Assembly (NCBI GenBank): GCA_024763455.1
Contig: JANTFL010000001.1
Location: 26,678 to 90,677 of the forward strand
Reading direction: 5' to 3'
Length of the DNA: 64,000 bases
From: Sediminispirochaeta sp.
GTDB taxonomy: Bacteria > Spirochaetota > Spirochaetia > B11-G9
The position numbers were made by a program, and so were the translations under genes. The stretch's first letter is position 1; each line of letters opens with the position of its first letter. Below the pieces are notes generated by a model that did not search any database, was not told the origin of the DNA, and saw nothing but the letters and a program-made list of their open reading frames with translations. This document shows, piece by piece, positions 2,126 through 55,698 of the stretch.

Positions 2126-2145
2126 GTTATTATGCAGGAGCTGTT

Positions 2146-11378: not shown

Positions 11379-11379
11379 T

Positions 11380-39221: not shown

Positions 39222-40104
39222 AACCATAATTATCTTTTCCATCATTGTAGTAATCCTGCCTGGAATATTTGTTTTTAAAAAGTCTCACACCCGTTCTCTG
39301 CTTTCTGCATCGTTTATCAGTACGGTTAACACTATGACGATGGAAAATGGGAGCGGGAGTTATACCTTGATAAAGCAGGGCAGAGACTGGTTCCTCGACG
39401 AAGGAGCTACGCATTTTATCTGCAGAAACGGAACGGTTAATGCTTATCTCCAAAAACTTGCTGGTTTAAAAATAATTGAAACGGCTGGTACTTCCAAAGC
39501 TGTCTGGGGAGATCTCGGAGTTGCTGATAACGATCATCATTCAACCACGCTGAAAAACGGTAAGGAAACAGTAAAGCTTTTCTGGGGAAAAAAGAGTGCT
39601 GGCGGAGAAGAGGTTTTTGTCCGGAAAAACCGGGAAGAGTCAGTCTATGTTACAACCTTTCCGGGGGCCGCCATTTATGCAGATAAATGGGGTTGGGTCA
39701 ATGTAAAAATTTTGCCAGTTGCTATTGATACTACTGAAATTATCTCCCTGGACTTTAAGAAAGAGGGGCAGGACTACTCGATAATACGGAAGAATTACTG
39801 GGAGTTGCACTCTGCACGAGGAACCGCCAGGATGGATACCAGGAAGATGAATCTATTACTGGAGAGGATAAAGAACCTGAAGGGAGAAGCTGTGGTCTTG
39901 AAAACGAAGAAGGCTGAGATGATGTCCGCAGGTACACTTATAGTACACCTTGCCGGAGACACCGCTTTGATACTGAATTTCTTAAAAGACAAAAAAGGCA
40001 GTTATTTTGCTGCAGAAGAAAGCAGTGGCTACCTCTACAGGATAAACACAGCAGAAAGAAACGGCGTGTTACCGGATGTAAAATACCTTCTGGATCACTT
40101 TTGA
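39211..40104 (+). CDS. DUF4340-like membrane-anchored protein
   Basis: It has an N-terminal TM helix and a beta-rich body, and occupies the usual position after gldG-like genes. I moved the start to the ATG at 39211. The assignment is by context and weak pattern only. Confidence 0.5.
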   Translation: MKIKTIIIFSIIVVILPGIFVFKKSHTRSLLSASFISTVNTMTMENGSGSYTLIKQGRDWFLDEGATHFICRNGTVNAYLQKLAGLKIIETAGTSKAVWGDLGVADNDHHSTTLKNGKETVKLFWGKKSAGGEEVFVRKNREESVYVTTFPGAAIYADKWGWVNVKILPVAIDTTEIISLDFKKEGQDYSIIRKNYWELHSARGTARMDTRKMNLLLERIKNLKGEAVVLKTKKAEMMSAGTLIVHLAGDTALILNFLKDKKGSYFAAEESSGYLYRINTAERNGVLPDVKYLLDHF

Positions 40105-41154
40105 CTAACCGTTTTTAGTTAAGAACTCCCGGTATTTTGCCGGGTCAGGTCTAAATCCAATTATATTTGCATCTTGTTCTTTTCCAGCCCTTTTAAGTGC
40201 AGCCGAAGCTTCTGAAAACAGAACATCTCCGTCTACAAGCCGCCCGTTTCTTGAACTGATACCGTACAGGATTGTATACCGTGTAAGAATATCAATCTTT
40301 GTTGAGGTGTTTTGATCAAAATCACGAATCAGTGCTATTCCCTTTTCAATATCAGCGTTTGGAATGATTACAGCATACAAATCAGAGGCACATCTGCATA
40401 TAAGGTCGGAATAGGTAAAGGTTTCCTGCAAAAGCCTTTCAAAAGAATTCATGGCTGAAGCAGAGGTCTCGTTTGGAATGTTTACCAAAGCCAGGACCAT
40501 ATCCTGATCGAATGATGCCGAACGTTTCAGTTCATTAGAAATCTTTGAGATAAATTCATATCTCATCCCTGATCTGTCTTTCTCAGCTTTTCGATCTTTT
40601 GAGTAGTGAGCTGCTTTAGAGATATCTTTCGAGTCCCTGCTGGATATAAGAATAATAAATGCGATAATGATAAATACCAGGGATGCTGCAATTGCATATT
40701 TTAGAAGAGATGCAAACTGATTAATCTGAAGTACCGTAAATACGGTTTTTATTTGATAAATCCTGCCTCGGTAGGGTTTGAACGTTGAAAGAGACGTATC
40801 CCTGATAGTGTCAACCACCTGCGTAAACGTCTCTGCTGTAGTGGATACCGCAGTTGCATTCCTGGCAAATACATAGAGGGATGATCCCTTATCATCAGAG
40901 ATTATCAGGGATTTTAACGAAGGGGAAGAAAGTGCCAGGTTTGAAAGTTTGACAAAGTTAGAAGTTTTTGATGAAGCACTGGTTTTGCTAAAGAGATCAT
41001 CAATAACAGTTTCCGAGATTGAATCAAACATAGTCTTTGCCTTCAAAGTATTCAGATGAAGATTAAAACCCATACTCAAAACAAGGTACAGAACGAGAAT
41101 TGTTATAAAAACAACACCGAAAACGTTAAAATATAATAATTTATTATCCTTCAT
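40105..41154 (-). CDS. membrane protein with C-terminal degenerate GGDEF-like domain (signature replaced)
   Basis: 349 aa with two TM helices flanking a periplasmic-looking segment. The C-terminal layout (VLALVNI...DLICRCASDLYAVIIPNADIEKGIALIRDF...YGISSR..LFSEASAALKRAGKE) resembles a GGDEF fold with ASDLY in place of GGDEF. TATAAT lies 6 nt upstream of the ATG. Confidence 0.4.
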   Translation of the reverse strand: MKDNKLLYFNVFGVVFITILVLYLVLSMGFNLHLNTLKAKTMFDSISETVIDDLFSKTSASSKTSNFVKLSNLALSSPSLKSLIISDDKGSSLYVFARNATAVSTTAETFTQVVDTIRDTSLSTFKPYRGRIYQIKTVFTVLQINQFASLLKYAIAASLVFIIIAFIILISSRDSKDISKAAHYSKDRKAEKDRSGMRYEFISKISNELKRSASFDQDMVLALVNIPNETSASAMNSFERLLQETFTYSDLICRCASDLYAVIIPNADIEKGIALIRDFDQNTSTKIDILTRYTILYGISSRNGRLVDGDVLFSEASAALKRAGKEQDANIIGFRPDPAKYREFLTKNG

Positions 41155-41233
41155 TCGACTATTATAAGCATGAATCTCTGATTTTAAAACCTTTTTTCTT
41201 TTCTTTTTAAGTATAAAATACTATCCTAATGAT

Positions 41234-42067
41234 ATGAAACTTTACGAAAAAAGAGACAGGTCACTACCTTCAGGCTGGTATCCTGATACAGAAGAAGGGG
41301 TGCGGAAAATTTTAATAAACTGGGAGGAGCGCTACGGGAAAAGAGAAGAGGGCTGTATCTCGGGAATAGTCCCCCATGCTGGATGGTTTTTTTCAGGGTA
41401 TATTGCTTTCTCTGTAATGAGTAACCTCTCTCCAGATGCGGATACGATTGTGATTGCAGGCGGTCATTTGCCTGGCGGAGTATCACCAATGCTCTTCAAC
41501 TATAAGGTAATGGAAACACCTATCGGTCCTTTGGAGACAGATTTAACCTTCCTTGAGGAGCTTTCAGGGCGAATTACATTTTACGAAGGTACAGAAGCAG
41601 ACAACACTGTTGAAATCCAGCTGCCTATTGTCAAGTATCTTTTCCCTGGGAGTAAGGTCGTAGCTTTAAGGGTTGGTGCAGGCAGCGATGCAATTGAACT
41701 AGGCGGGGAAATTGCAGCCGTTTCAAGAAAGCTGGGTAAAAAGACTGTTGTTGTTGGATCAACTGATCTCACCCATTACGGACCTTCATACGGATTTACC
41801 CCCCATGGGACCGGTAATTCAGCCCTCCGCTGGGTTAAAGAAGTAAATGACAAGAAAATAGTAAATGCTTTTTTATCAATGGAAGAAGAAAAAGTTCTGG
41901 AGTACGGGAACAGGAACAAGGCGGCATGCTCATCCGGCGCTGCTGCGAGTGCTATAGCATTTGCCCGTCACTTTGGCAGGTCACAAGGGGAGCTTATTTC
42001 ATACATGACCAGTAATGATGTCTATCCATCAGACTCCTTTGTCGGTTATGCCGGAGTAGTGTACTAA
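41234..42067 (+). CDS. MEMO1-family protein (AmmeMemoRadiSam system protein B-like)
   Basis: 277 aa. GWYPD, IVPHAGWFFSG, AGGHLPG, VEIQLP, STDLTHYG, AACSSG and the terminal FVGYAGVVY match the Memo family layout. Confidence 0.8.
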   Translation: MKLYEKRDRSLPSGWYPDTEEGVRKILINWEERYGKREEGCISGIVPHAGWFFSGYIAFSVMSNLSPDADTIVIAGGHLPGGVSPMLFNYKVMETPIGPLETDLTFLEELSGRITFYEGTEADNTVEIQLPIVKYLFPGSKVVALRVGAGSDAIELGGEIAAVSRKLGKKTVVVGSTDLTHYGPSYGFTPHGTGNSALRWVKEVNDKKIVNAFLSMEEEKVLEYGNRNKAACSSGAAASAIAFARHFGRSQGELISYMTSNDVYPSDSFVGYAGVVY

Positions 42068-43746
42068 GATGCAATTACCTTCGCTACTGTTTCAATTGTC
42101 CAGTCAAGAGTTTTTCTAAGAATCTCCATCCCTCCTGTATCAGGGGAACACACTCTCCTGATTGCAGCTGCTGCGGGGAAAAGAGTGATGCAAACCTCTT
42201 TTTGTCTTGAGGTAAGAGAGTGCATATATCCGGATAAAGACTCTGCCGGTACTGGAAGAGATTTAAGATCCTGGTAGTACGAGTAAAGAAAATGATTCCA
42301 TGAGAGATCAGCTGGCCCTGCGGAAAATATACTTGATATTCCGTATGATTCGGGTATTTTTTGATATGCAGGGATTTCTATCATTTCACCTTCCCCTTCA
42401 GGAATGATTACTTCGGATTTGAGACTGCTGATCAGTTTTTCAAGTCTTTTTTTATAACTAATCATTGGTTTCGTCACATACCGTGAGCTTCTCGTATCAG
42501 TTACATGGTTAGTCTCATCGTTGTGAAAAATAAAATCAATAAAAAAATCTTCAAGAGGTTGTGTTCTGTGTGTCAGAGCGCTGAAATATGGATATAAATA
42601 GGTACCTCTGGCATAACTCTTGCCGTAGGGATAAGAGAAGTCAACCCCGAAAAGCAAAATTTTTTTTGCCCCCAGAGAGTAGGCAAGGGATACTGCGGCA
42701 TGGCTGACATTTCCGCCTGAAGTATCAATAAAAGGGAATTCCCTCCATCTTTTTTTTACATACAATGAGAACGGGTGACCGCTGGTAAAAAAAAGAACAT
42801 TGTCTGTAAGCCGGGTTATGAGCTGAGGCGATGCAAGATCAAGAACAAGAGGGATATCATTGGGGATTCCAGTCATAAAGTGATGAAACGTAATATGCTG
42901 GCAGTCGATAGATAATATCAGGTCAGGTTTAATCCCATTTTGTATAAGAGCGGGATAAGCGGTGTCTGTTGTAATCAGAAATCCATCTTTTGAATGCTCC
43001 TTTAATTGTGGCAGCTGCTTTTCTAACGACGGACCGGCTCCGGCTATGAGTGCTTTATTAACAGGAGAAATAACAGTAGTAGTTTTTTCTGCCGCCTTCA
43101 GGTTAAGAAGTGTGTTCACAAACCACCTTTTGCCGAAGTAAGATTGTACTGAAAAATCCTCTGAAAGCGGTGTTATTACATCATTGATTGTTTTTGTAAC
43201 ACTGGAAAAAAATTCGTTTTCCATTTCAACTCTTGCTCTGAGTTTAAGAATATCAAGGTTTCCTGATATGGCAGGGATATAGTTTTCAAGAATATGACTG
43301 GATATATCCTCTGGTGAGGGATCAATAAGTATGCGTACTCTTTTATCAAGAAAAAGTGAGGTGAGATTAAAATGAGTGAGTATTTTCTTGAAAAAGCCAT
43401 AATCCTTGTCAATTACAAGAATCTCAGATATTTGTTTATCTTCAGTAAAGGGTAGTATATGATAACCGGCACCAAAACCGAGGATAATTATGTAACCACT
43501 TGCTTTAAACGTAGAATAAAACCTCTTCCCTTCTTTCTCCGGATCAAAGGTTGAATGAAGAGGGACTTCTCTATCGTTTTTTTTCAAAAACGGAACCCGC
43601 ATTCCTGTTCTGCTTTCTTTTATCAGGTACTGATCAGATTCATCAACATAGCTTATCTTGGAGGCAAGACTGGAATTCGTCGCCGAAAGTGCAAGAAGAT
43701 TGGATTCAAGAAACGACTGATTACTCTGTTTCTGCATTATGTTCAA
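42064..43746 (-). CDS. Maf-like DUF115/MptE-like domain protein, putative (flagellin) glycosyltransferase
   Basis: 560 aa. The core ALIAGAGPSLEKQLPQLKEH..ITTDTAYPALIQNGIKPDLILSIDCQ is present, with a Maf-type N-terminus (..PLHSTFDPEKEGKRF..ILGFGAGYH). It is the last gene of the 48395-42064 operon. Confidence 0.75.
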   Translation of the reverse strand: MNIMQKQSNQSFLESNLLALSATNSSLASKISYVDESDQYLIKESRTGMRVPFLKKNDREVPLHSTFDPEKEGKRFYSTFKASGYIIILGFGAGYHILPFTEDKQISEILVIDKDYGFFKKILTHFNLTSLFLDKRVRILIDPSPEDISSHILENYIPAISGNLDILKLRARVEMENEFFSSVTKTINDVITPLSEDFSVQSYFGKRWFVNTLLNLKAAEKTTTVISPVNKALIAGAGPSLEKQLPQLKEHSKDGFLITTDTAYPALIQNGIKPDLILSIDCQHITFHHFMTGIPNDIPLVLDLASPQLITRLTDNVLFFTSGHPFSLYVKKRWREFPFIDTSGGNVSHAAVSLAYSLGAKKILLFGVDFSYPYGKSYARGTYLYPYFSALTHRTQPLEDFFIDFIFHNDETNHVTDTRSSRYVTKPMISYKKRLEKLISSLKSEVIIPEGEGEMIEIPAYQKIPESYGISSIFSAGPADLSWNHFLYSYYQDLKSLPVPAESLSGYMHSLTSRQKEVCITLFPAAAAIRRVCSPDTGGMEILRKTLDWTIETVAKVIAS

Positions 43747-45253
43747 AAGTTCCCCTTACTATTTCTTCGGCTGTTGTAATTATCGGATAAAGATCATCTA
43801 CAGTGCAGCTTTCGCCTGAAGAAAGTTTTTTTACACAGATAATAATTTCCTGGAGTGAAAATAGATAGAATAAACCGGTTAAAGATTCATCTCTGGTAAG
43901 AAAGCGGACTAAGTCCTGAAAACCAGTTATCTCAGGGATCTCCCTCTTTACGATTTGAAGTTTTTTTATGATTGCATGAAGGGAAGAATCAATGAGATCA
44001 AAAGATTTCGGTTTTGCTACTGAAGAAAAAAAGAATTCAGTGGAATCGGCACGTATATTCCCGGTTACTAATTGAATGATTTCACTACCCTTTACTGAGT
44101 GGAAAAAATTTAATGTGGAAGACGATGGATTAACCCTGTAAATATTGTTACTGATACGGACATTATTAAACCAGTTAGCATAGGTTTGGTAAGCTCTATT
44201 GCTCCCCTGATGCTGTGAATCAATCTTGTGTGAATACAATATGTCAAGATATGGGTGAACCCTGGATTCTCGGCATTTAAAATAATTATCAAAAGTATGG
44301 GGGCTTACATGGCTGTGGACATCATTGAATGCAAGATCCAGTCCAGCTACAAATACTGAGGGACTGCCAAGTTTTAACGAGAGTACTAGAGCTGTAGCTG
44401 CAACAGTGCCGGTTTCAAAGAGTTTTACTGAGGGGATCGAAATAAATGAAGACACCCATTTTTCCAATTCAGAGTTCTGGTTAATCAGGAGAACAGGTCC
44501 ATCAACTTTGAGGTGGGTTGCAGTCAAAGGCATGGCAAATGGAATTCCCCGAATAAAATCCTGCCTGAAATGAAATCGATTCCAGAAACCGGGATCAGTA
44601 TTTACAATTAAATCAGGATAAATCGAATAGTATTCAAGTGCATGAAGCGATGAAGGAAGTGCTGTTATAAAAAAAAGTTCCCGATGCTCTTTTATCAGCG
44701 GTAACATCTTGGAAAGAGACGGTCCTGCGGCAGTAATAAGAACAGGCTTTGAAATTTTAAATGAATCCGGGTTTATAAACGTATTGATGTATTTTAGATT
44801 TAGGTATAAATTTCGAATCCATTTTCTACTGAAGTTAACTGTTGTAACTACAGAGCCGTTTCTTTCTTCCATGAATGAAAAAATAGTATCAGCTACCAAT
44901 TGATGGATCTCTGGGAAAGCTTTTGAACACGGTTTCCAAACAATCAACCGGAGAACCGGAATCATGAAATCGGGTATTGAAGAGCCCAAAAAACTTTTCA
45001 ATGAAGTATTTGAACCGACGTACCATGAAAGTTTTTTATCCTTGGCTTTGTCATAAAAAATCTTGTTGTAATATACAGAAACAACTAAGGAACCAGGATA
45101 CCTATCCATCAGATACTTTTTCAGATATTCCCCTCCCGGCCCGGTCAGGAGAAATAGATAACATCCCTTTTTAATATTTAAAGAATCCACATACCGTGAG
45201 GCTGCACGCTCAGGCGCATAAGGTGAATGAATGGTAATACCGTTGTATTTCAA
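43721..45253 (-). CDS. Maf-like DUF115/MptE-like domain protein (second tandem paralogue)
   Basis: 510 aa. The core VLITAAGPSLSKMLPLIKEH..ALPSSLHALEYYSIYPDLIVNTDPG is present. Its 3' end overlaps the next Maf-like gene by 26 nt. Confidence 0.7.
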   Translation of the reverse strand: MKYNGITIHSPYAPERAASRYVDSLNIKKGCYLFLLTGPGGEYLKKYLMDRYPGSLVVSVYYNKIFYDKAKDKKLSWYVGSNTSLKSFLGSSIPDFMIPVLRLIVWKPCSKAFPEIHQLVADTIFSFMEERNGSVVTTVNFSRKWIRNLYLNLKYINTFINPDSFKISKPVLITAAGPSLSKMLPLIKEHRELFFITALPSSLHALEYYSIYPDLIVNTDPGFWNRFHFRQDFIRGIPFAMPLTATHLKVDGPVLLINQNSELEKWVSSFISIPSVKLFETGTVAATALVLSLKLGSPSVFVAGLDLAFNDVHSHVSPHTFDNYFKCRESRVHPYLDILYSHKIDSQHQGSNRAYQTYANWFNNVRISNNIYRVNPSSSTLNFFHSVKGSEIIQLVTGNIRADSTEFFFSSVAKPKSFDLIDSSLHAIIKKLQIVKREIPEITGFQDLVRFLTRDESLTGLFYLFSLQEIIICVKKLSSGESCTVDDLYPIITTAEEIVRGTFEHNAETE

Positions 45254-45265
45254 AGAGGTATTCCT

Positions 45266-46186
45266 CTAAAGGATATCCAGCTTGGAAAGAAGCAAATCCA
45301 CATCTCTGCCCTGTTCAGGATACAAGATATAGGAATGTTTTATAACCGGAAGATCAGTCTGAATATTAAAATAATTTTTTAAGGTTAATTCAATTTGAGT
45401 TGTTAGAATCTGCGGTTTTTTCATAGTATGTGATGAAAAGAGCAGCAAGGATGTATAAAGATCAATCTGTAATAATCTGCCGGATATATTAACCATAGAG
45501 TAGATTGTGTCAAAAATATCCTGGGATATCTGTTTATCTTCCTGGCTTTCAGATCCGGACTCAGAAATAATGGAAATAAGCTCTTCAAAGTTGAGTTTAA
45601 TAAGGAAAATAACAGAATCCCTATGTTTTGAAAGGTACCGTGATACGAAAGGAATTATTGATGAATCAGCGGACACTGCAGTTTTTTTACTGCTTTCAAT
45701 TTTGGATAGCTTTTCAAGAATAAGTCTTAGAGTTTTTATTGCTTCATCAACAGCTCGTGGTTTTTGAATCATCGGTGAATTGATACCCAGAAATGCAGTA
45801 TCTTGATGCTTCATAAAAGTGATGTTCTTCAGTCCTGTGAATTCGCGTATTGAAAGCAGCGGTTTAAAATTCTGCAGATCCTCAGGTGAAGTAAGTATGT
45901 TAAACCCTTCTGTTTTGAAGATGGAACTTAAAAATTTATTGTTAAATCTAACTCTTCGGCTGGAGGTTATATCAATACCGGTTTGGGCTGCCGGTAACCA
46001 AAGATCTTCTTTGGGGTTATAAGAAAGAAACAAAGCTTTTTTAAGACCAACAAAATCACAAAAAAGGTTTAATGACTTTAAAGGATATGATTCATCAGTG
46101 GATAAATCTCTTTCACTACGAACAAAATCTTCGTAGCTTTTTTTTTTAGAATCTTTTGTATCTAAAACAGTGTTTAGTAAACCCAT
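45266..46186 (-). CDS. hypothetical protein (306 aa), operon partner of the acidic repeat protein and Maf paralogues
   Basis: Long ORF lying 4 nt after the upstream stop and 12 nt before the next start. I recognise no diagnostic motif. A possible small-ligand-sensor-like two-domain layout is only a guess. Confidence 0.5.
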   Translation of the reverse strand: MGLLNTVLDTKDSKKKSYEDFVRSERDLSTDESYPLKSLNLFCDFVGLKKALFLSYNPKEDLWLPAAQTGIDITSSRRVRFNNKFLSSIFKTEGFNILTSPEDLQNFKPLLSIREFTGLKNITFMKHQDTAFLGINSPMIQKPRAVDEAIKTLRLILEKLSKIESSKKTAVSADSSIIPFVSRYLSKHRDSVIFLIKLNFEELISIISESGSESQEDKQISQDIFDTIYSMVNISGRLLQIDLYTSLLLFSSHTMKKPQILTTQIELTLKNYFNIQTDLPVIKHSYILYPEQGRDVDLLLSKLDIL

Positions 46187-46190
46187 CTAC

Positions 46191-48395
46191 CTAATGAAGC
46201 CCCAACTCATCAAAAAGTTTTTTATAAACTGAAAAGTACTCGGAGTTTGCAAACTCTTCTATCTTCTCCTCTGGGAGGGACTCGAGCAGCTGATCCATAT
46301 ACGATAGAACTGAAATAACCTCAGATTGCAGATGAGATGGAATCGGTTCTTCTCCAGGAGCATTGTCTGCTATTTCAGTATCCTCTGTTATTTCTTCAGG
46401 AATTTCGATTTCCTCAGGTGCCTCAACAGAATCAGACAATAAATCATCATCCTGGAGTTCCGGTATCTCGATATCAATAGCAGTACTTTCCATAGGTTCA
46501 GAAGGTTCTTTAGGGGGAAGAATATCAAATTCCTCATCAAGATCATTAAGCTCCGGCAGGTCTTCTACAAACTGTTCTTCACTTACTTCTGGAACTTCTT
46601 CAACACGTGCTGCCTCTTCCGGAATCTCAAGATCGGTAAGGTCGGAATCCAGAGAAAGTTCTTCTTCCTCCGGCATCTCCAGGTCGGTAAGGTCAGAATC
46701 CAGAGAAAGTTCTTCTTCCTCCGGCATCTCCAGGTCGGTAAGGTCGGAATCGAGAGAAAGTTCTTCTTCTGGGATCTCAAGATCAGTAAGGTCGGAATCA
46801 AGAGAAAGTTCTTCTTCCGGGATTTCAAGATTCGGCAGATCTGAATCCAGGGATAACTCAGCCGGTTCTTCCTCTTCCTCGATATCAATAAGTTCCGGAG
46901 TTTCGTCGGCTGCCTCATCAAGTACTTCCAGATCGATCAGATCTTCATCTTCAGCGTCCAAATTTAGTTCCGAAACGTCATCAAGCTCAAGGTTTTCGAG
47001 TTCCAGGTCAGGTTCGTCTGTAAAATCTACATCTTCGGAAACTACAGCTTCCGGTATCTCCTCTGCTTCATCGAGTTCGAGTTCTTCAACTTCCGGAATT
47101 TCTTCTTCCATGGAAAGTTCATCCAGTATATCTGGCTGATCAATTAAATCCAGATCTTCTGCTTTGGTTAGTTCCTCGTCCATGGAAAGTTCTTCAGAAT
47201 CTTCAAGAGATTCAGTTTCTACAGCCAGTTCCTCTGTTATATCAGCCGTATTAAGGATATTATCGAGTTCATCCCCTGTTAGAGCAATAGTTTCGTCATC
47301 ATCCTCATTAAAGAAATCACTCGTCTCCTCAGCTGTTTCATCCGTTTGAGAAGCGGTAACCGGAACTGTTTCAGTTGTTTTTAGAGTAGATAACTCCTCT
47401 TTCATTGTAAGAATTTCATTCTTTATGGTAAGGAGTTCGTTTTCAATCTTTTTTAATACTTCAGAAGCCGATTCAACGGATACTTCAGATGCCGTATAAG
47501 AGGGGATGTCACTTTCAACGATATCCTCCTCCTCACCAGTTGTAAGATCTTCAATGATACTTTCAGTTTCATCGAAGTCAACAGAGAAGTCATCAGGGGC
47601 TCCATCACCGGCTTCTTCATCTTCGGAGATTTCAAGGTCAGGGAGTTCTTCAATAGCAAGTTCTTCAGCTCCAGAGATCTCTTCGGCGTTGCCGGGAAGA
47701 GCAGCCTCTTCTTCTCCTTCTTCGTTAAGGAGGATATCATCATCTTCAAGAAAGCTGTCAACATCAAGGTCTTCAAAATCTTCATCGAGGCCGGAACTGA
47801 GTAGATCATCTTCATCAAGATCAAGATCAAGATCATCAACTGAATCTGTCTCAGGGTTAACGGAACTTATACTCTCAGTTTCACGTTCCGGTTCTGTGAC
47901 AGCCTCGATATCTTCTATATCCTCAAGCTCAAGGTCTTCCAGTTCACTGTCCAGGTCATCAAGATCAGCCAATTCTACATCTTCAAGTTCCAGATCATCC
48001 TCTTCCATAGTCTCCATTTCCGGTTCATCTCCTATGCCAGCAGTTTCAGTCTCTTTGGTATTTTCAGGAGACTCATCAAAAGTCTCTGAAGATTCTATAT
48101 CAAGAGGCATGTCAAAAGATTCGTCTTCTTCAAGATCGAAGTCAAGATCATCCAGTTCGTCAATCTCGTCATCGATTTCTTCTGTAACAAGTTCCTTTTC
48201 AAGTTCTCCCAGAAGATTTTCTTCTTCCTCTGTAATTGCACTCTCAGTAGTATCCTGAATATCATGAAGAGAGAAATCTTCTCCTGTATTTAAAGTGTCT
48301 TCGGTTTCAATCTCTTCCGGACCTGCTTTTACCCATACTCCGTACTGTTCAAGCTCTTTTTCTTTTTTTATGTCATCATTCCCGTTTGACACCAT
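46191..48395 (-). CDS. hyper-acidic repeat protein (~734 aa), function unknown
   Basis: Long ORF. 39 of the first 100 residues are D/E by hand count and the composition is similar throughout. There is no TM helix or signal peptide. Three non-acidic islands are present: N-terminal KELEQYGVWVKAGPEE, a central coiled-coil-like VLKKIENELLTIKNEILTMKEELSTLK, and C-terminal VISVLSYMDQLLESLPEEKIEEFANSEYFSVYKKLFDELGL. AGGAG lies 6 nt upstream of the second ATG (48395); the first ATG at 48401 abuts the SD. Confidence 0.6.
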   Translation of the reverse strand: MVSNGNDDIKKEKELEQYGVWVKAGPEEIETEDTLNTGEDFSLHDIQDTTESAITEEEENLLGELEKELVTEEIDDEIDELDDLDFDLEEDESFDMPLDIESSETFDESPENTKETETAGIGDEPEMETMEEDDLELEDVELADLDDLDSELEDLELEDIEDIEAVTEPERETESISSVNPETDSVDDLDLDLDEDDLLSSGLDEDFEDLDVDSFLEDDDILLNEEGEEEAALPGNAEEISGAEELAIEELPDLEISEDEEAGDGAPDDFSVDFDETESIIEDLTTGEEEDIVESDIPSYTASEVSVESASEVLKKIENELLTIKNEILTMKEELSTLKTTETVPVTASQTDETAEETSDFFNEDDDETIALTGDELDNILNTADITEELAVETESLEDSEELSMDEELTKAEDLDLIDQPDILDELSMEEEIPEVEELELDEAEEIPEAVVSEDVDFTDEPDLELENLELDDVSELNLDAEDEDLIDLEVLDEAADETPELIDIEEEEEPAELSLDSDLPNLEIPEEELSLDSDLTDLEIPEEELSLDSDLTDLEMPEEEELSLDSDLTDLEMPEEEELSLDSDLTDLEIPEEAARVEEVPEVSEEQFVEDLPELNDLDEEFDILPPKEPSEPMESTAIDIEIPELQDDDLLSDSVEAPEEIEIPEEITEDTEIADNAPGEEPIPSHLQSEVISVLSYMDQLLESLPEEKIEEFANSEYFSVYKKLFDELGLH
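46614..46862 (-). repeat. in-frame tandem repeat, 5 units of 48 or 51 nt (ELSLDSDLTDLE[I/M]PEE[E])
   Basis: Five consecutive near-identical DNA units are visible, e.g. ccggcatctccaggtcggtaaggtc[a/g]gaatccagagaaagttcttcttcct occurs twice. They encode 17+16+17+17+16 aa. Confidence 0.9.
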
Positions 48396-48593
48396 TTCCA
48401 TCTCCTGATATTTAGTTCACTTTTACAAATATCGGCAAATAAATTTAAAGTATGACTTATTTATCAGTTTCAATACTATTAATTACAAGTTATCAGAATT
48501 ATAGAGAAATAACAATCAAAATCTAAAAAATATTGAGCCCTTTTCTCTTTCCCGGCTCAAGATTAAGACCTGAATTTCCGTAAAAAAGAACAT

Positions 48594-49067
48594 ATGAAGC
48601 TCATTCACCGTTTACTGATAAGTTTATACACCGCATTTATAGTATTTACCTGGTTATCCTTCTTTGTGGGTCCAAATGGACTGGCAGAAAGCCGCCAGCT
48701 GGAACAATACAAGGAGAAGCTTGTAAAAGGGAATCTCGAAATGGAGAAGATAAACCAGAAGCTTGACAATGAATTTAGAAGACTTGAAAGTGACCCTGAT
48801 AGAATTGCCCTGGAAGCAAGAAGCCTTGGATACTATCGTGATAATGAGGGGATATTCCTTTTGGAAGGATATCATGTAAACCGTAAGGGCTATTCGGTAG
48901 GATCACTTTTCAGAGAATATTCGGGTAAAACTTCAAGTATAGCGGCAATCAGGCTGACAGCAGTATCGCTGGGTGTTGTTGTGTTCTTTTTTCTGACCAT
49001 ATTTTCGAGGAACAAAAATGATTATACTATCCGCAGAAGACGATATTCGGAAGCACGTTATAATTAA
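48594..49067 (+). CDS. FtsB/DivIC-like septum formation initiator family protein
   Basis: 157 aa. It has an N-terminal TM helix, a coiled coil (QLEQYKEKLVKGNLEMEKINQKLDNEFRRLESDPDRIALEARSLGYYRDNEGIFL, matching the family pattern ending ..AR.LG....E) and an extra C-terminal TM helix. Confidence 0.6.
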   Translation: MKLIHRLLISLYTAFIVFTWLSFFVGPNGLAESRQLEQYKEKLVKGNLEMEKINQKLDNEFRRLESDPDRIALEARSLGYYRDNEGIFLLEGYHVNRKGYSVGSLFREYSGKTSSIAAIRLTAVSLGVVVFFFLTIFSRNKNDYTIRRRRYSEARYN

Positions 49068-49584
49068 AACACTGAAAGAAAACGGAATTGTTATTATGCC
49101 CTGCGATACCATATACGGTTTTGTTGGTGCTGTCCCTGATACGGGAGAAAAAATCGCATCAATCAAGGGGAGGGAAGAGGGGAAAAAGTTTCTTCAGCTT
49201 ATTCTTCCATCATGGCTCGGCAACTTTACCGATATGAAAATAGAAGAGGAGCTTCTTAAGGTGAGTCCCGGCTGTATTACCTTTATTATTAAAAACCGGA
49301 CAGGAGATACTACAGCAGTCAGGTTCCCTGAAGATCCCTTCCTTGCTGATATTATTGATGGTGTTGGCAGACCGTTGTACTCAACCAGTGTAAACAGGAG
49401 CGGAGCACAGATCCTGTTCCGCCCCGTTGAAATGATTGAGGAATTCGGCAACGAAATAGATGTTCTGCTTGATGCCGGTGAAATTCCCGGTAAAAAACCA
49501 TCCACCATACTCGATGTTACTGCGAGACCTTACAGAATACTAAGACAGGGTGCAGGTGCTGTTCCGGAAAAGTACCTTACCTGA
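49018..49584 (+). CDS. tsaC: L-threonylcarbamoyladenylate synthase (TsaC/YrdC family)
   Basis: 188 aa. VIMPCDTIYGFVG, KGREEGKKF, PLYSTSVNRSG and STILDVT are YrdC-domain motifs. GAGGA lies 6 nt upstream of the ATG. Confidence 0.8.
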   Translation: MIILSAEDDIRKHVIIKTLKENGIVIMPCDTIYGFVGAVPDTGEKIASIKGREEGKKFLQLILPSWLGNFTDMKIEEELLKVSPGCITFIIKNRTGDTTAVRFPEDPFLADIIDGVGRPLYSTSVNRSGAQILFRPVEMIEEFGNEIDVLLDAGEIPGKKPSTILDVTARPYRILRQGAGAVPEKYLT

Positions 49585-50917
49585 CTATTTTTCGGCACTC
49601 GATATAGTATCTTTTCTCATCTGCCTCCCCCATGGAGAATGTTTTCCTTGGAAATGTTTTATCTTTGACTATTGTCTGAAAGAACGAGTGCTTATCGATA
49701 GCCGGAAGAAAGATTCCAATAGTACCTTTCTTCCGTCCCAGTTTCTCTGTTTCTTCTTTGCCGTGAATGTAGTCAACAGATGCATCTTTATTCTCTGCAA
49801 GAATCGAATCTATGACCCTTTGTATTGAACCTGCAGTAATTGTAGCAGCAGGAGCTTCGATATCAATGGTTCCCAGAACAGATTCGTCACAGTATCCTAT
49901 TCTCTGGTGTGGTTTTTGATTCTCAAGAGAAGCCATAACCTCTTGTAAAGATGATTTTTCACTGATCCTGCAGGAGCTGTATTTTTTTAGTTCTTTAAAG
50001 AAGGTTTCTCTGGAACAGTTAAAAACAACTCTGTGAATCGGTTCGAAAACAATCCCCTCGTCGTGAATGTTCTCAAGCTCAACCAAAGCCCATCTGGCTG
50101 GATGATTCATAAGATCAGGATCAGATGAGTTGTTTTTTTTGATCTCTTCCCAGACTGATTTCGCAGTGGCAAGTGAGTGGTTCCCGTCGCCCATTGCGTA
50201 TAGCAGCAGATCAGAGGAGCCGTATTTGTTTTTAAAGGTATCAATATCCGCAAGTTTTTCAAGTGCGGCTGCAATAGATGAAACAGTTTCTGGGTCATCA
50301 ATCCTATATCCCTCGATATGCCCGCCATTTTTCATCAGATCAAAGTTGTATATCTCCTGAAGTTCAGATGTTTTTGCAGCTAAGGGTTCGATAACGGTTT
50401 TATCCGGATCATCGATAAGAACGAGAATATGAGGCAGCTCCAGTGATGCATCGATCCTGATTTTTTTTCTCGGGGGTATTCTCTCTTCGATTGTTCCTTC
50501 AGTCGCTCTGATCAGGCTTTTAGAGTCTTTTGAATAGTCATACTTTTCAAGATCAAGAGCGGCAACCAGCCCCCATCTATAGGATCCCTCTTTCCCGTTT
50601 TGTCTTTTTACAAGATAGAAAGCAGGGTCATATCTTTTTAAGATTCCATTTTTAAGGTAGTTTTCCATTGTTGTATTGATCTGTTTAATCCTGCGTTCGG
50701 GATTATCCTCTCCAAGATAACATTCTGGGTATATCAAGTTCAGGGTTGAAGGAGAATCCCCGACTGTTTTTTGTACATCTTCCCAATAGCCGGTATCTGA
50801 AGTGTATTGATCACAGGCTACAACCGCCCATTCTTTCATCTTTCCGGTATCTGCAGGTAGGTACACCTCTGGCATTCTGATACCTAATTTAGCAAGTCTT
50901 TTTTCTAAATTGGTCAT
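49577..50917 (-). CDS. DUF1015-like protein
   Basis: 446 aa. The overall layout and the LLYAMGDGNHSLATAK segment (family motif ..ADGHHR..) suggest DUF1015. AAGGGGG lies 6 nt upstream of the ATG. Confidence 0.6.
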   Translation of the reverse strand: MTNLEKRLAKLGIRMPEVYLPADTGKMKEWAVVACDQYTSDTGYWEDVQKTVGDSPSTLNLIYPECYLGEDNPERRIKQINTTMENYLKNGILKRYDPAFYLVKRQNGKEGSYRWGLVAALDLEKYDYSKDSKSLIRATEGTIEERIPPRKKIRIDASLELPHILVLIDDPDKTVIEPLAAKTSELQEIYNFDLMKNGGHIEGYRIDDPETVSSIAAALEKLADIDTFKNKYGSSDLLLYAMGDGNHSLATAKSVWEEIKKNNSSDPDLMNHPARWALVELENIHDEGIVFEPIHRVVFNCSRETFFKELKKYSSCRISEKSSLQEVMASLENQKPHQRIGYCDESVLGTIDIEAPAATITAGSIQRVIDSILAENKDASVDYIHGKEETEKLGRKKGTIGIFLPAIDKHSFFQTIVKDKTFPRKTFSMGEADEKRYYIECRKIVR

Positions 50918-50970
50918 AAATTACCCCCTTAAGTGTCGAATAATATTAGGAAAATAAATAAAATACAAGT

Positions 50971-51993
50971 ATGCATGGTATTTATCTTGATTGTCAGGAC
51001 GCACCCTACAAAACAAACCTGTTGTTCAAGTTCCTTGAAGGAATGAGCTCTGCCGGATTCCGGTATTTGTTTTTTAATCCCGGAAGATTCTTCCCCTGGT
51101 CGGAGGATTTCCATTTCTCTTCCTTCTATACTTATCCGGAAGAATTTATGCAGAAATTCGCAGAGAAGGCAGCACAAAAAGGGATCGTTTTAATCCCTGT
51201 CCTTGATGCTGGAAGCGGAAGCGGTTTTATTGTGGAAAAATTGTTTTACAGATTCATGGCGCCGGAATATCCTGAAAAGGCAGCAATAGATCCCGACACC
51301 GCAGGAACTGTGCTCTTTTTTGAAGAATTAATGGAAGACCTTTTTTCAGTTATTCCGGAAGCCGGGTATCTTCTTGTCCTCACAAGCAGGAGCCTCCCCG
51401 CAGAATCAGAGATCCGGTTTCTTTCCCGGATCATAAAAACTGCTGAAGCACTTGGTAAAAAAATTATATTCACTGAGGGGGGAGGCGGGTGTCTCAACGA
51501 TATTCCGGGGGCTGCAGGGTCTCTGTGTGAGGGGATACAAGAACCTGGCAGAAGTATTCTGAAGTTAGAGAATAGTGAGATAATTATCCGGAGGATACCT
51601 GGGGTAGATCCGTTTACACCTTTCAGTGGCTGGAAATCTCTCTGGGATAAAAGTTCAGAAAGGGAATTTGTAACAGACCGGGAACTGCTGGAATCATTCA
51701 TAAACAATAAAAAGAACTGTTGGGAACTATACAGTACATTGGAAGCTGAAATTTCACTTCTTATCTACGGTAGTGCACGGGGGTCTGTACTAAAAGCTTT
51801 TGACATATACCGGAGGCTTGAAGAATGCTATGGTAAAACTTCAGCTATTCGAAATAGGATTGAATCAGTGTTCTCATCAAGTTTTGAAGGACAATACGTT
51901 GAAAACCTGTGTCTTTCCATTATGGAACCACTTGAGAGTATTGCAAACAGAGCCAAGGAAAAAATCAGAATTCTGGAAAGAAGGAGCTTATGA
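50971..51993 (+). CDS. hypothetical protein (340 aa)
   Basis: Long ORF translationally coupled to thiN (overlapping ATGA). The N-terminal GIYLDCQD..GFRYLFFNP.. is faintly reminiscent of a TIM-barrel glycosidase start, but no catalytic motif is recognised. Confidence 0.45.
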   Translation: MHGIYLDCQDAPYKTNLLFKFLEGMSSAGFRYLFFNPGRFFPWSEDFHFSSFYTYPEEFMQKFAEKAAQKGIVLIPVLDAGSGSGFIVEKLFYRFMAPEYPEKAAIDPDTAGTVLFFEELMEDLFSVIPEAGYLLVLTSRSLPAESEIRFLSRIIKTAEALGKKIIFTEGGGGCLNDIPGAAGSLCEGIQEPGRSILKLENSEIIIRRIPGVDPFTPFSGWKSLWDKSSEREFVTDRELLESFINNKKNCWELYSTLEAEISLLIYGSARGSVLKAFDIYRRLEECYGKTSAIRNRIESVFSSSFEGQYVENLCLSIMEPLESIANRAKEKIRILERRSL

Positions 51994-52622
51994 CGGGGAT
52001 AATCTTTACAGGAGGGGAAGGTCCGGAAAAGAGATTTATTGAAAACGAGATAAAGGCAGGAGACTACATAATAGCAGCCGATTCCGGACTGGATAGAGCC
52101 CTTTTATGCGGATATTCACCGGATCTTGTCGTAGGGGATCTGGATTCTGTAAAAAACAAAACTTTTTTAGATGACATTCCTGCTGACTGTGTTAAGATAT
52201 TCCCTGAAGATAAAGATGAAACGGATACAGAAATCGCCTTGAGAATTATGAAAGAGATAAAGGTTGATCGGGTAATCCTCGCAGGCGGGGGAGGGGGACG
52301 TCTCGACCATCTTCTGGGCATTGTATCCATCTTCGACCGTTCATATTATCCTGATGTTTGGTATACCGCAATGGAGAAGATTGTACCTGTCAGCAGCAGG
52401 GATGAGTTTTACGGAATGCTGGGTAAAACGGTTTCACTGTTTCCCGCCGGTAAGGAACCCTGCAGGATAAAAAGCACCGGTTTGAAGTGGAATCTTGATA
52501 CAGTGCAATGGAGTAAAGGTGATGCAGGGATCAGTAACATTGTTGTTGAAGATCCTTTTACAATAACCATGGTAACCGGAAAAGTACTGCTGATAAGTTT
52601 TTTGAAGGAGTTTGGCGAATGA
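51990..52622 (+). CDS. thiN: thiamine diphosphokinase
   Basis: 210 aa. IIAADSGLD, PDLVVGDLDS, DKDETDTEIAL and AGGGGGRLDHLL are the TPK signatures. Confidence 0.8.
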   Translation: MTGIIFTGGEGPEKRFIENEIKAGDYIIAADSGLDRALLCGYSPDLVVGDLDSVKNKTFLDDIPADCVKIFPEDKDETDTEIALRIMKEIKVDRVILAGGGGGRLDHLLGIVSIFDRSYYPDVWYTAMEKIVPVSSRDEFYGMLGKTVSLFPAGKEPCRIKSTGLKWNLDTVQWSKGDAGISNIVVEDPFTITMVTGKVLLISFLKEFGE

Positions 52623-54367
52623 CGAAAAAAGATGTGGTATTCCACGATCTTTCAAAGGGGCTTACGCAAAATGAAAGGGATGAATTTCTTAAAAAAATAA
52701 AATACAGTCTCAGTTTAGATAATGAAGAAAGTGGGCTTCATCAGGAGGAAATGGACAAGGATGAACGGCTTGCTCTGATTAAAAAAGAGAAGAATGAAAT
52801 ATCCATGTTATGGAGGTTTTTTCTCTGGATACAGTCAAAATTTACCGGGAAGAGTGTTGAAGAGCTGCTCCTTGCTGGAAAACTCCTTCGAATAAAAAAG
52901 AAAATAAAGAAAAAGCACTCCGGGCTTACAGGGTTTGAGACCAGAAATCTTACTCCTCATTTTGCAGAAATGGTGTACGATCTCTATAAATCCACGGTAC
53001 CGGTAAGGACCCTTTTTAAAAGGATTTGGCTGGACGAAAAAGCTCTTAATACATTTTTTATGGATATAGTAGAGGAAGCGGTCGGGGAAAGAATTCTCGA
53101 TCTTGAGGATGTAGCAAGTTTTGATTCCATAATTGGTGCTTTCGGAGAAGCGGGAAAAAAAGATGATGTTAAGAGACTGATCATAGAAAAACTTGATGCT
53201 TACCTTGAATCGCTTAACAGTAATATCTTTAAACAGCTGGAAATCGATCTGCTTCCCATATACAGGCTGAGAGATCTTGTTCTATTCCCCTATGTTCAGT
53301 TTTTTCAGCAATTTGGCTATACCCTCCTTGATACTCCCTATACGGAAAATCCCCAATTTAAAAATGCCTCCGCCATACTCTGTCTGAATGATCTCGAAAA
53401 ACTGAATTTTGCTGTGTATTCTGCTACAAAACTGGAAAGAAGAGTCAATTTTAACTCCAGAATGCTGGACCGCCTTGGAGTTGTCGCGGGGAATGAACCT
53501 GATGAAAATGTTGAGCATTTTTCTTCTGATATGGAATTAGTCATTCAAAAAGCAAAATGGTTTTCTGATAAGATTCCTCTTTCTGATCTCATACGGTACT
53601 TTAAGAAGAATCCTTTTATAAAAATGATCTTTTATATTCCTGAAGTTAATCTAAGAACCTTTTACAGGACCAGCTTGACTGTAAGGATGATAACCCGGAT
53701 TGATGAACGACTTGCAGAAATACAGGAAAAGTATATCGCCCATGAAATAGAGTCGCTTTTTGCCGGAAAGCATTATGTGAAATTTCAAAACTACCGGGAA
53801 TATTCATCAATAGATTACGAGAAACTTGGAGTTTCCTCCTTCAGGAATATGGAGCCATTGTCCCTGATATATAACTTTATCGAGTGCTACTACAGAGGTA
53901 ATGTAATACAATCGATAGTCAGGGTCCTTGAAAAAGGTGTACTGGCGCAGAACAGACTTATGAGGGATAATATGCTGCAGTACGCTTCTGTTATCGAAGA
54001 TGTAGCAGAAAGGATTCGGGTTTTTGATGATTCCCTTTCCCCTGATTCTGAGGAAGGTAAGGTTTTTCACAAACTCAGATTTTCCATGACCAAGGATATT
54101 TCTCAGCAAAAGGTTTTTAGAAAAATTGTTATCCAAAAAGACCGGGAAGCAAGAAATTTATGCGAAGCAGGTATGGATGCTCTGACAGGGTTAAAAAGAG
54201 TGTTGGGTGAGATAAACCGGAGTACGAATGATGCCGTTACCGAGCAGTTAAAACAACACTATCTTATTAACAACAAACCTGTTGTGCTGCAGGATCTGCT
54301 CACTGGTTCTCTGGAGAATCTGAATAAGGTTGAACACCTCTATCATCACATGCTTACAACCGTATAG
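52619..54367 (+). CDS. hypothetical protein, paralogue of the 5189-6892 product
   Basis: 582 aa. It shows collinear motif similarity to the 567 aa protein at 5189 (see that entry) and is coupled to thiN (ATGA overlap). Confidence 0.6.
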   Translation: MTKKDVVFHDLSKGLTQNERDEFLKKIKYSLSLDNEESGLHQEEMDKDERLALIKKEKNEISMLWRFFLWIQSKFTGKSVEELLLAGKLLRIKKKIKKKHSGLTGFETRNLTPHFAEMVYDLYKSTVPVRTLFKRIWLDEKALNTFFMDIVEEAVGERILDLEDVASFDSIIGAFGEAGKKDDVKRLIIEKLDAYLESLNSNIFKQLEIDLLPIYRLRDLVLFPYVQFFQQFGYTLLDTPYTENPQFKNASAILCLNDLEKLNFAVYSATKLERRVNFNSRMLDRLGVVAGNEPDENVEHFSSDMELVIQKAKWFSDKIPLSDLIRYFKKNPFIKMIFYIPEVNLRTFYRTSLTVRMITRIDERLAEIQEKYIAHEIESLFAGKHYVKFQNYREYSSIDYEKLGVSSFRNMEPLSLIYNFIECYYRGNVIQSIVRVLEKGVLAQNRLMRDNMLQYASVIEDVAERIRVFDDSLSPDSEEGKVFHKLRFSMTKDISQQKVFRKIVIQKDREARNLCEAGMDALTGLKRVLGEINRSTNDAVTEQLKQHYLINNKPVVLQDLLTGSLENLNKVEHLYHHMLTTV

Positions 54368-54848
54368 GTGACTTTTCAAGGGCTTTTTTAATCCTTTTAC
54401 AGGTAACCCGGGGATCTTCAACAAGTACTTTTTTACCAGCGATAAGATCAGAGATGCCTATCTCCCGTGGATAACGGGGAATAATATGTCGATGAAGATG
54501 GTTTATGGAAGCCCCTGCGACTGGACCCATATTATACCCCAGGTTATAAGCTGAAGGTTTGTGTGTTTTGTCAATAATATTCAGCAGACTTTTAGTAATA
54601 ACGATCATCTGTCTTTCTTCTTCTTCGGTAAAATCTCTTATGTCGGTTATGTGCCGACGGGGAAATATAATCAAATGCCCAGGGTTGTATGGATAGAGAT
54701 TGACGGATACGATAAAAAGTTCGTTCTCCCAAACCTTAAGTTTTTTAACCGCTGATGAATTTTCAGCAATCATGCATAGAATACAGCCATCAGGCTTCTC
54801 CCCTGTAAGATACTCCATCTTGCTGAAGCTGAAAAAATAGTTACTCAT
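54354..54848 (-). CDS. HIT-family nucleotide hydrolase/transferase
   Basis: It has the histidine triad HLHRHIIPR and the CILC..NLYPYNPGHLIIFPRRH pattern. I moved the start to the ATG at 54848, preceded by GAGAGGA; the track start at 54926 lies inside the upstream gene. Confidence 0.8.
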   Translation of the reverse strand: MSNYFFSFSKMEYLTGEKPDGCILCMIAENSSAVKKLKVWENELFIVSVNLYPYNPGHLIIFPRRHITDIRDFTEEEERQMIVITKSLLNIIDKTHKPSAYNLGYNMGPVAGASINHLHRHIIPRYPREIGISDLIAGKKVLVEDPRVTCKRIKKALEKSPIRL

Positions 54849-55698
54849 TTTTTTCCTCTCCGGGAAGTGAAATTGAGGGAATAACATTGCTGCGCAGGGA
54901 GCTGTCGGTTGAAAGTACTTGAACAAGTTCAGGATATTTTTTTAAAAGATCGCCATATTTCTTTAAAAGCTCAATCTTTGAAGCTTCTCGTATTTCATCC
55001 TCCGCTGCTCTCTGTTTTGCTTCTGCGTCTATGGCTGTCCGGGAACTCAAGTAGTTAAAATAATTTTCTTTTGCCTTCCTGTACAGTGCAATATCTGGGA
55101 ATTCAATGCTTGTTATGGTAAGATTTATTAAAGAGATATACGGGATAGTTTCTTTCAGCGCATCGCTTGCTGCATTGGTAAAATCAATGGAAAGCAGGTC
55201 TTTATAATCACTTTTTGACGTTTCATCAAGTTTATTAAAAACAGCTGTTTGAATCAGGTTGGTAAGTTTGTCTTTAGTGTCTCCGTAAAACTGCTCCATG
55301 GATCCGGGGTCAATGAGATTTTTCTGCAACAGTCCGGGAAGTGATTCCTCTTTCAGCAGGTATGAAACAGAAAATGAGAGGGAGTAGGAAAAATCCGGTT
55401 CACCGGTCATAAATTTACCGTACACTCTCCCCGACGGAAGTATCCCGTTTTTAGAAAACGAAAATGAACGGGGGAGAATTTTTACTTTGATGAGCTTTAA
55501 ATTTCCGGGAATGATTTTTTGTAAACTCCAGGAAAAAGCTCCCGGCTTGTATACCCGCTCTCCGTATCCTGCTGATTTGGTAAAGGCTACAGCGTAAGTA
55601 TTTTCATCAAGATGAATCTGGATCCATCCCAGATAAAATATCACTGCTGCCATAAGGAGTAATATAATCAGTACAAATATATTTCTAATTTTTTTCAT
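54841..55698 (-). CDS. membrane-anchored hypothetical protein (possible SPFH/band-7-like)
   Basis: 285 aa. An N-terminal TM helix is followed by ..YAVAFTKSAGYGERVYKPGAFSW.., which resembles the start of SPFH domains. This is a weak call. Confidence 0.4.
   Translation of the reverse strand: MKKIRNIFVLIILLLMAAVIFYLGWIQIHLDENTYAVAFTKSAGYGERVYKPGAFSWSLQKIIPGNLKLIKVKILPRSFSFSKNGILPSGRVYGKFMTGEPDFSYSLSFSVSYLLKEESLPGLLQKNLIDPGSMEQFYGDTKDKLTNLIQTAVFNKLDETSKSDYKDLLSIDFTNAASDALKETIPYISLINLTITSIEFPDIALYRKAKENYFNYLSSRTAIDAEAKQRAAEDEIREASKIELLKKYGDLLKKYPELVQVLSTDSSLRSNVIPSISLPGEEKNE

Follow-up and report, generated by a model that had tools for sequence, protein, structure and literature searches.

An exceptionally acidic TP_0179-family protein encoded ahead of Maf-like genes, a candidate docking scaffold of the spirochetal flagellar system

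The TP_0179 family (PF27359), which to go by the name that Pfam gives it includes a Treponema pallidum protein, occurs in many treponemes and has so far had no proposed function. The 64,000-nucleotide stretch of Sediminispirochaeta sp. analyzed here (GenBank assembly GCA_024763455.1, contig JANTFL010000001.1, positions 26,678 to 90,677; hereafter, the window) carries on its minus strand a coding sequence (CDS; 46191..48401) whose product is, judged by its homologues, a typical, unusually acidic member of this known but functionally blank family. To judge by the modules of the protein, by a flagellar-type promoter element upstream of its gene, and by the fixed place of that gene before two Maf-like genes, it may be a flexible scaffold for docking within the flagellar system. 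Maf is a family of flagellin nonulosonic-acid glycosyltransferases. We tentatively favor a late-flagellar, self-associating polyanionic scaffold with motifs that would dock the cotranscribed Maf-like enzymes and/or flagellin substrates. New to the family are an invariant internal motif (island 4 below), a near-universal operon with Maf-like genes, a conserved sigma-28-type element, and a design like that of the acidic hub proteins PopZ and ChePep.

Homologues carry the family assignment. Searched against 5.8 billion proteins, the acidic sequence had 1,069 significant matches; each of the best 120 bears the PF27359 label (E values of 2.6e-266 to 1.3e-27), and every named organism among these 120 belongs to Spirochaetia. 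The gene tables of two compared loci, L001 and L002, name PF27359 "TP_0179." The label is a precomputed annotation of the homologues. The Pfam-A copy that we searched appears to be without the PF27359 model and gave no direct match to it, even for the C-terminal 58 aa at E<=10. The family takes its name from T. pallidum TP_0179, and in the papers on T. pallidum that we consulted, TP0179 is no more than a "hypothetical protein" that has a recombinant segment (PMC8789261, PMC6602244); searches for TP0178 and TP0180 to TP0182 yielded no useful information. Among the homologues, NCBI annotation reads "hypothetical protein" and JGI annotation, in many cases, "pilus assembly protein FimV," a label that most likely reflects composition alone.

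The C-terminal domain is encoded in at least 554 genomes in a scan of one genome per species, and the best 80 of these are all Treponema, Sediminispirochaeta, Spirochaeta, Breznakiella, or unclassified spirochetes. A profile of the C-terminal 58 residues recovered 2,278 clusters at 50% identity, 1,569 of them at E<=1e-10. In nearly all of the best 150 clusters the match ends no more than 2 or 3 residues from the C terminus, and no Pfam domain was found in the long members (974 to 1,312 aa) scanned among these 150. Viral contigs yielded no relative. Full-length homologues have a median D+E fraction of 0.32 to 0.34 (range, 0.27 to 0.41), which places the Sediminispirochaeta protein at the acidic end of its family (39.8% versus a median of ~33%). 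Compared with the 72%-identical orthologue at L002, every indel is in frame, and the ratio of nonsynonymous to synonymous substitution rates (dN/dS) is 0.037 in the conserved islands described below, 0.21 in the spacers, and 0.17 overall, at a dS of 0.70. The gene is under purifying selection. The one odd architecture, P0135 (L084 8001-8954), is a 317-aa protein with a nonacidic N-terminal domain followed by two tandem TP_0179 C-terminal domains. It has only the C-terminal domain in common with the family, yet it carries the PF27359 label. Its gene neighbors, which encode a GmrSD/HNH protein, MazG, a UvrD helicase, and large unknown proteins, are uninformative.

The acidic CDS is an uninterrupted open reading frame (ORF) of 736 codons from the first ATG to a stop codon at 46191-46193 (features of this gene and its operon are all on the minus strand). 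A Shine-Dalgarno sequence, AGGAG (48402..48406), directly abuts the first ATG (0 nt) and leaves 6 nt before the second (48395), and the closest orthologues begin with MVSNG. This spacing and the orthologous starts therefore indicate that translation probably begins at the second ATG and yields a product of 734 aa, in agreement with the approximate length given by an earlier interpretation of these letters alone (the sequence-only reading). With 183 Glu and 110 Asp, D+E account for 39.8% of the residues; Lys and Arg together number 18 (2.4%), and the net charge is -275. Among the window's 33 other long ORFs, D+E makes up 12.9 +/- 2.0% on average and 16.1% at most, which leaves the acidic ORF 13.8 standard deviations out. 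Residues 1-100 contain 39 D/E, exactly the number counted earlier by hand. The bias extends, as also described then, to about residue 690 at 11 to 16 D/E per 30-residue window, with residues 301-360 as an exception. Because Kyte-Doolittle hydropathy over 19-residue windows peaks at only 0.62, we found neither a transmembrane (TM) helix nor a signal peptide, as the sequence-only reading had likewise concluded, and the protein is cytoplasmic. Two Ser-rich plus-strand ORFs antisense to the acidic gene, at 46363-47139 (258 aa) and 47506-48258 (250 aa), were rejected as genes; they are mirror artifacts of the GAA/GAT-rich coding strand.

When 121 sequences are aligned, five conserved islands emerge, separated by stretches that cannot be aligned. 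As this alignment and the homologue compositions reveal, the acidic spacers conserve composition and not sequence. The sequence-only reading had described three nonacidic islands, N-terminal, central, and C-terminal; all three are real and conserved, and two more (aa 43-68 and aa 362-391) had been overlooked. The comparison of islands with spacers that it recommended, made here through the alignment and dN/dS, sets conserved islands against variable spacers. In the full-length AlphaFold2 (AF2) model, built from a 95-sequence alignment, the predicted local distance difference test score (pLDDT) is below 50 for 561 of 736 residues, so that ~75% of the protein is predicted to be disordered. Confident helices are limited to aa 58-76, 309-342, and 689-733, the last comprising three helices. 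In the AF2 summary, which does not include contact data, nothing indicates that the islands come together as a single globular domain (predicted template modeling score of 0.24; isolated helices).

Island 1 (aa 17-29, LEQYGVWVKAGPE; 48315..48353) is an N-terminal linear motif, LEQYGVWVKxGPE, with near-invariant columns L17, E18, Y20, G21, V22, W23, V24, K25, and P28. The pattern [YFW]G[VIL]W[VIL]K occurs in 118 of 120 homologues, and AF2 assigns YGVWVK no secondary structure (pLDDT of ~50). Island 2 (aa 43-68, FxLxD...LTxEEExLLGELE; 48198..48275) is moderately conserved and leads into the helix modeled at aa 58-76, where the 10-residue block 61-70 has a mean pLDDT of 82. Island 3 (aa 309-342; 47376..47477) is a leucine-zipper-like helix of four heptads, modeled with a pLDDT of 80 to 94. 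Its hydrophobic residues at 316, 319, 323, 326, 330, 333, 337, and 340 keep a perfect 3-4 heptad register, L323 and I326 being invariant; this periodicity points to a probable oligomerization element. Island 4 (aa 362-391, GFFxEDEDETIALTGDELDNILNTADITEE; 47229..47318) is a near-invariant short amphipathic helix and the strongest conserved stretch of the protein, with identity values of 1.00 and 0.93 over aa 371-390 (118 homologues scored) and invariant columns from I372 to I382. AF2 renders it as a low-confidence helix at 376-389 (pLDDT of 57 to 59), and it is a putative docking motif. The motif is duplicated in 30 of 120 homologues, with the second copy near the N terminus in those listed. 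Island 5 (aa 688-736, LPxxKIxEFAxSxYF...LFxxLGL; 46194..46340) is the C-terminal three-helix domain and the part tracked by the PF27359 label. It has 16 invariant columns, its motifs are present in 114 to 116 of 120 homologues, and a 58-aa construct is modeled with a pLDDT of 84 and helices at 11-30, 33-40, and 43-54.

Searches of Pfam, NCBIfam, and PDB sequences with the whole protein and with single islands, the latter a check that the sequence-only reading had recommended, returned nothing significant; the best match, a MICAL C-terminal-like helix (E value of 0.035), was judged to be due to chance. Within the acidic spacer, a tandem 51-bp (17-aa) repeat that is expanded in this family member, EE(E)LSLDSDLTDLE[IM]P, spans 46615..46850, with 4.0 to 4.8 copies at 85 to 90% match according to Tandem Repeats Finder. 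A stricter protein pattern recognizes four full 17-aa units, ahead of which lies a variant copy containing P and N. Copy number is 4 to 5 here versus about two in the L002 orthologue, a variation that recalls the recombinant, variable segment of T. pallidum tp0179 (PMC8789261).

Downstream, the acidic gene is followed by three genes on the same strand: one for a 306-aa protein of no family (45266..46186), which starts 4 nt past the acidic-gene stop, and two for Maf-like proteins of 510 aa (43721..45253) and 560 aa (42064..43746). From the acidic gene downward, the gaps measure 4 nt and then 12 nt, the two Maf-like genes overlap by 26 nt, and no minus-strand terminator is predicted between the genes of the operon. 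The 510-aa protein is MptE-like (Pfam E value of 3e-22) and matches NCBIfam FlagModPseD, a model of flagellin-modification PseD, at 2.2e-08; the 560-aa protein matches a FlagModPseD domain at 1.1e-19. Both FlagModPseD matches are partial. The homologue of the 560-aa protein at L001 is MptE-like with a faint Maf_flag10_N match. Across 82 loci, 80 of them from the genome scan and two fetched by protein look-up, a homologue of the 510-aa protein is encoded directly downstream of the acidic gene in 78 and one of the 560-aa protein in 76, and loci with this Maf-like pair range from Treponema to Sediminispirochaeta and Breznakiella. The 306-aa protein has no credible Pfam or NCBIfam match (only MobA, far below the cutoff). 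Because its gene evolves fast, has just 14 homologues, and is missing from some loci (L069, for instance, has no equivalent), it was rejected as a core member, and the core unit is the TP_0179 gene plus two maf genes.

Upstream of the acidic gene lies a sigma-28 (FliA)-type -10 element, GCCGATAT (48429..48436), with a CCGATA core that starts 34 nt upstream of the first ATG. In Treponema denticola, the flaB2 sigma-28 promoter (PflaB2), mapped by RLM-RACE, has the -10 sequence CCGATAA (PMC9481697). CCGATA[AT] is found at 42 of 60 loci (70%) in the 300 nt that precede the codon of the N-terminal motif, usually 100 to 160 nt before that codon, versus 4.8% of random same-strand control windows. A second CCGATAA on the minus strand (43780-43786) falls in the 3' end of the first Maf-like gene, ~35 nt before the start of the second, and might either act as an internal sigma-28-type promoter or have arisen by chance. 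Neither the upstream sigma-28-type element, nor the Maf-like operon, nor the PF27359 membership, nor the island at aa 362-391 had been noticed in the sequence-only reading.

We base the scaffold proposal on the PopZ-like layout of the protein, on the precedent of ChePep, and on that of GlfM for Maf-2 enzymes. PopZ consists of an N-terminal client helix, an acidic disordered region that provides repulsion and spacing, and a C-terminal three-helix oligomerization domain (PMC9512792). As modeled, the acidic protein repeats this order, with an N-terminal motif first, then a disordered acidic region, and a three-helix unit at the end; the resemblance is one of design, not descent. There is no sequence relationship, and the C-terminal domain of the acidic protein has no Pfam match. 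The acidic protein is, moreover, four times longer than PopZ, its spacer is rich in leucine and acidic residues whereas that of PopZ is rich in proline, and it adds the mid-chain heptad helix and the invariant internal motif. Self-assembly, condensation, and polar localization, which characterize PopZ, could be extended to the acidic protein by analogy only.

ChePep, the "poly-E-rich protein" of Helicobacter and Campylobacter (Epsilonproteobacteria), is a polar, lineage-specific protein with ~30% D/E that controls flagellar switching, and its orthologues complement one another despite sequence divergence (PMC3143842). The acidic protein is comparably lineage-restricted, motility-associated, and very acidic, and, like ChePep, it joins a short conserved terminal stretch to a divergent acidic body in which charge, not sequence, matters. 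The two are not homologous. The N-terminal response-regulator-like motif of ChePep is absent here (no Response_reg match; LEQYGVWVKxGPE instead), and the acidic gene stands beside Maf-like, not chemotaxis, genes.

For flagellin binding, Maf-2 glycosyltransferases depend on GlfM, a helical adaptor encoded in cis (bioRxiv 10.1101/2023.12.03.569772). In both cases the gene for a small helical module neighbors maf genes, which for the acidic gene holds at 78 of 82 loci. GlfM is, however, an 89-aa four-helix bundle with FliS/FliT-like remote homology encoded downstream of maf, whereas the 45-aa three-helix unit ends a 734-aa protein encoded upstream of maf. No match of the acidic protein to GlfM was found in sequence or fold.

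In the proposed scaffold, the heptad helix at aa 309-342, and possibly the C-terminal three-helix unit too, would mediate oligomerization, and the YGVWVK motif and the invariant helix at aa 371-390 would act as client-binding motifs that fold on binding. Among the clients would be the cotranscribed Maf enzymes, the flagellins that serve as their substrates, or both, and modification of flagellin might thereby be organized near the export apparatus, ahead of secretion. As in PopZ and ChePep, the acidic region would serve as a repulsive, solubilizing spacer. The suggestion of a scaffold or hub in the sequence-only reading is thus reasonable in light of the layout of PopZ and the composition and lineage restriction of ChePep; the analogy that it drew with HubP and FimV is not, as discussed below.

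Several observations weigh against a Maf-docking scaffold. Oligomerization is read from sequence features alone, the model of the C-terminal domain has generic helical structural neighbors and no informative relative, and the literature offers no partner, localization, or phenotype for any member of the TP_0179 family. The enrichment of CCGATA[AT] upstream of the acidic gene (binomial p of ~1e-41) is a statistic that ignores phylogeny. The -35 element is ill defined: just 7 of 41 loci have a canonical TAAA-N15, and in Treponema a different element, AAACTAC, is shared. There is also a sigma-70-like site upstream of the gene. Adjacency to maf may in part be inherited synteny and not functional coupling, because gene order is conserved over a much longer block. 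That block (window 36344-56000 and L001 to L082) comprises genes for DUF1015, Sua5/YrdC, FtsB/DivIC, the TP_0179-maf-maf unit, Memo, and a GldG-like ABC transporter with DUF4340; the divergent FtsB/DivIC gene stands upstream of the acidic gene at 47 of 82 loci. The gene for P0135, a protein with the C-terminal domain, lies apart from any maf gene, and nonulosonic-acid biosynthesis genes are not evident within the 64-kb window.

Among the alternatives, the one that survives best, although we consider it rather improbable, is a chemotaxis or switch regulator in which island 4 would mimic the N-terminal "EIDAL" peptide of FliM/FliY and dock CheY-P or FlhG, a MinD-like ATPase. The role of the protein would be that of a tether or sink close to the motors, in the manner of ChePep or CheZ, and its adjacency to maf would be secondary. 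Island 4 (IALTGDELDNILN) fits the pattern L[ST]xxE[ILV]Dx[ILV][LI] and shares L-[ST]-x-x-E-[IL]-D-x-[LI]-L-N with Salmonella and treponemal FliM, the former beginning MGDSILSQAEIDALLNG (8umd_C). In 780,000 residues of six-frame ORFs, the first pattern matches only the family (64 matches) and one genuine FliM N terminus, LSQEEIDQLL, which is that of the fliM gene at L069. The pattern was, however, written after both sequences had been seen. In unbiased scoring the similarity is marginal: FliM is not among the top nonfamily matches of an island-4 hidden Markov model, and the ungapped BLOSUM62 score of 23 between island 4 and FliM is reached at 47 of 779,447 background positions, ~5e-4 for one comparison before correction for the several motifs considered. 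No profile or PDB sequence match connects the two. In favor is the second copy of island 4, which in those listed among the 30 duplicated homologues lies near the N terminus, where the motif is also found in FliM; in most members the motif is internal. Its low-confidence AF2 helix is typical of a motif that folds on binding. The FliM N terminus is used by both FlhG and CheY (PMC12826062), and ChePep offers the precedent of an acidic chemotaxis regulator (PMC3143842); unlike ChePep, the acidic protein has no receiver (REC) domain. A sigma-28-type promoter would suit a chemotaxis gene too, and the window holds a cheX gene. fliM is a neighbor at only 1 of 82 loci. We therefore treat the likeness of island 4 to the docking motif of FliM as only a lead. 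The single case is a Treponema metagenome-assembled genome (L069), where fliM (11175-12203, plus strand; Pfam FliM, 6e-81) follows the second Maf-like gene by 72 nt on the same strand; it is found at none of the other 81 loci.

Both ideas could be merged into a spirochete hub of the PopZ/ChePep kind, i.e., a sigma-28-controlled, self-assembling polyanionic scaffold near the subpolar motors in which island 4, as a mimic of the FliM N terminus, would dock CheY-P/FlhG and the other modules would hold the Maf enzymes. This wider version strikes us as improbable. It would couple flagellin modification and assembly to switch signaling and could bear on how spirochetes coordinate motors at the two cell ends.

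A disordered late-class protein might instead be an exported flagellar type III substrate or regulator, secreted to the periplasm or sensed as FlgM is. The late-class (sigma-28-type) promoter element, an almost wholly disordered chain that would need no unfolding, and the conserved extreme N-terminal region all fit this idea. It is nevertheless quite unlikely: searches of Pfam and NCBIfam gave no similarity to FlgM or known substrates and no FlgM domain, a separate FlgM has been reported in T. denticola (PMC9481697), and the coiled coil and folded C-terminal domain better suit assembly in the cytoplasm.

A further alternative is a partnerless bulk polyanion that buffers Mg/Ca or polyamines, or an electrostatic mimic; cation (Ca/Mg) buffering and electrostatic mimicry had been suggested in the sequence-only reading. 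The net charge and the spacers' conservation of composition over sequence agree with it. That case stands on composition, leaves the 20-residue invariant motif unexplained, and has no need for islands evolving at a dN/dS of 0.037 or for a folded C-terminal domain; conservation of the operon and promoter points instead to a specific pathway. Bulk buffering or mimicry accordingly seems very unlikely.

For a polar landmark of the HubP/FimV type, an envelope-anchored acidic hub marking the cell pole, there speak the acidic composition, the imperfect acidic repeats (39.8% D/E; 17-aa unit in 4 to 5 copies), and the JGI FimV label on many homologues. HubP and FimV differ from this cytoplasmic protein in that it has no TM segment or signal peptide and no LysM domain (Pfam, E<=0.1). 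Nor does the FimV C-terminal motif match in NCBIfam or Pfam, whether with the whole protein or with the C-terminal 58 aa, so that the lack of this motif and of LysM noted in the sequence-only reading is upheld. Since the conserved modules are also unrelated to those of FimV or HubP, we rejected a landmark identity, which has very little probability left. Finally, spacers that cannot be aligned and a variable repeat number might suggest a nonfunctional, fast-evolving low-complexity ORF, the outcome that the sequence-only reading had linked to absence of the islands in homologues, and conservation leaves this next to no credibility, with the frame intact across hundreds of species, 2,278 clusters, a conserved position and promoter element, and dN/dS values of 0.17 overall and 0.037 in the islands.

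Our analysis turns a conserved hypothetical protein into a testable flagellar candidate with five modules and a predicted dependence on FliA. CheY, FlhG, FlaB flagellins, and the two Maf-like enzymes are the likely candidates for its partners. Should the scaffold proposal be true, the TP_0179 family would be a spirochete addition to the acidic disordered hubs represented by PopZ, ChePep, and HubP, and it may supply a missing accessory factor of spirochetal flagellin glycosylation.

On the practical side, the acidic gene attracts a misleading "FimV" label and, by its low complexity, breaks metagenome assemblies. In L083 (2-484), from the Logan assembly of SRR19843167, the contig breaks inside the acidic gene; its neighboring 306-aa protein is 100% identical, and the assembly appears to come from the same organism. 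Of 132 newly retrieved representative C-terminal-domain matches, 73 are without the N-terminal motif, and many look like fragments.

Elsewhere in the window, the flagellar rod genes flgF (28-876, plus strand; above the NCBIfam cutoff) and flgG (894-1688, plus strand; 4e-144) stand at the start. They are followed by a gene for a 289-aa sigma factor (2113-2982, plus strand) with regions 1.2, 2, 3, and 4, whose best models are RpoS and RpoD, all below their cutoffs. As it is RpoS/RpoD-like, it was rejected as FliA, and the sigma-28 gene implied by the promoter element therefore lies outside the window. The CheX-type CheY-P phosphatase mentioned above has 154 aa and is encoded at 14352-14816 on the minus strand (Pfam CheX, 7e-11). 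Beyond the convergent Memo gene, a 349-aa protein without a Pfam or NCBIfam match (40105-41154, minus strand) has, by eye, a hydrophobic N terminus and is probably membrane bound; its gene is syntenic at 47 of 82 loci.

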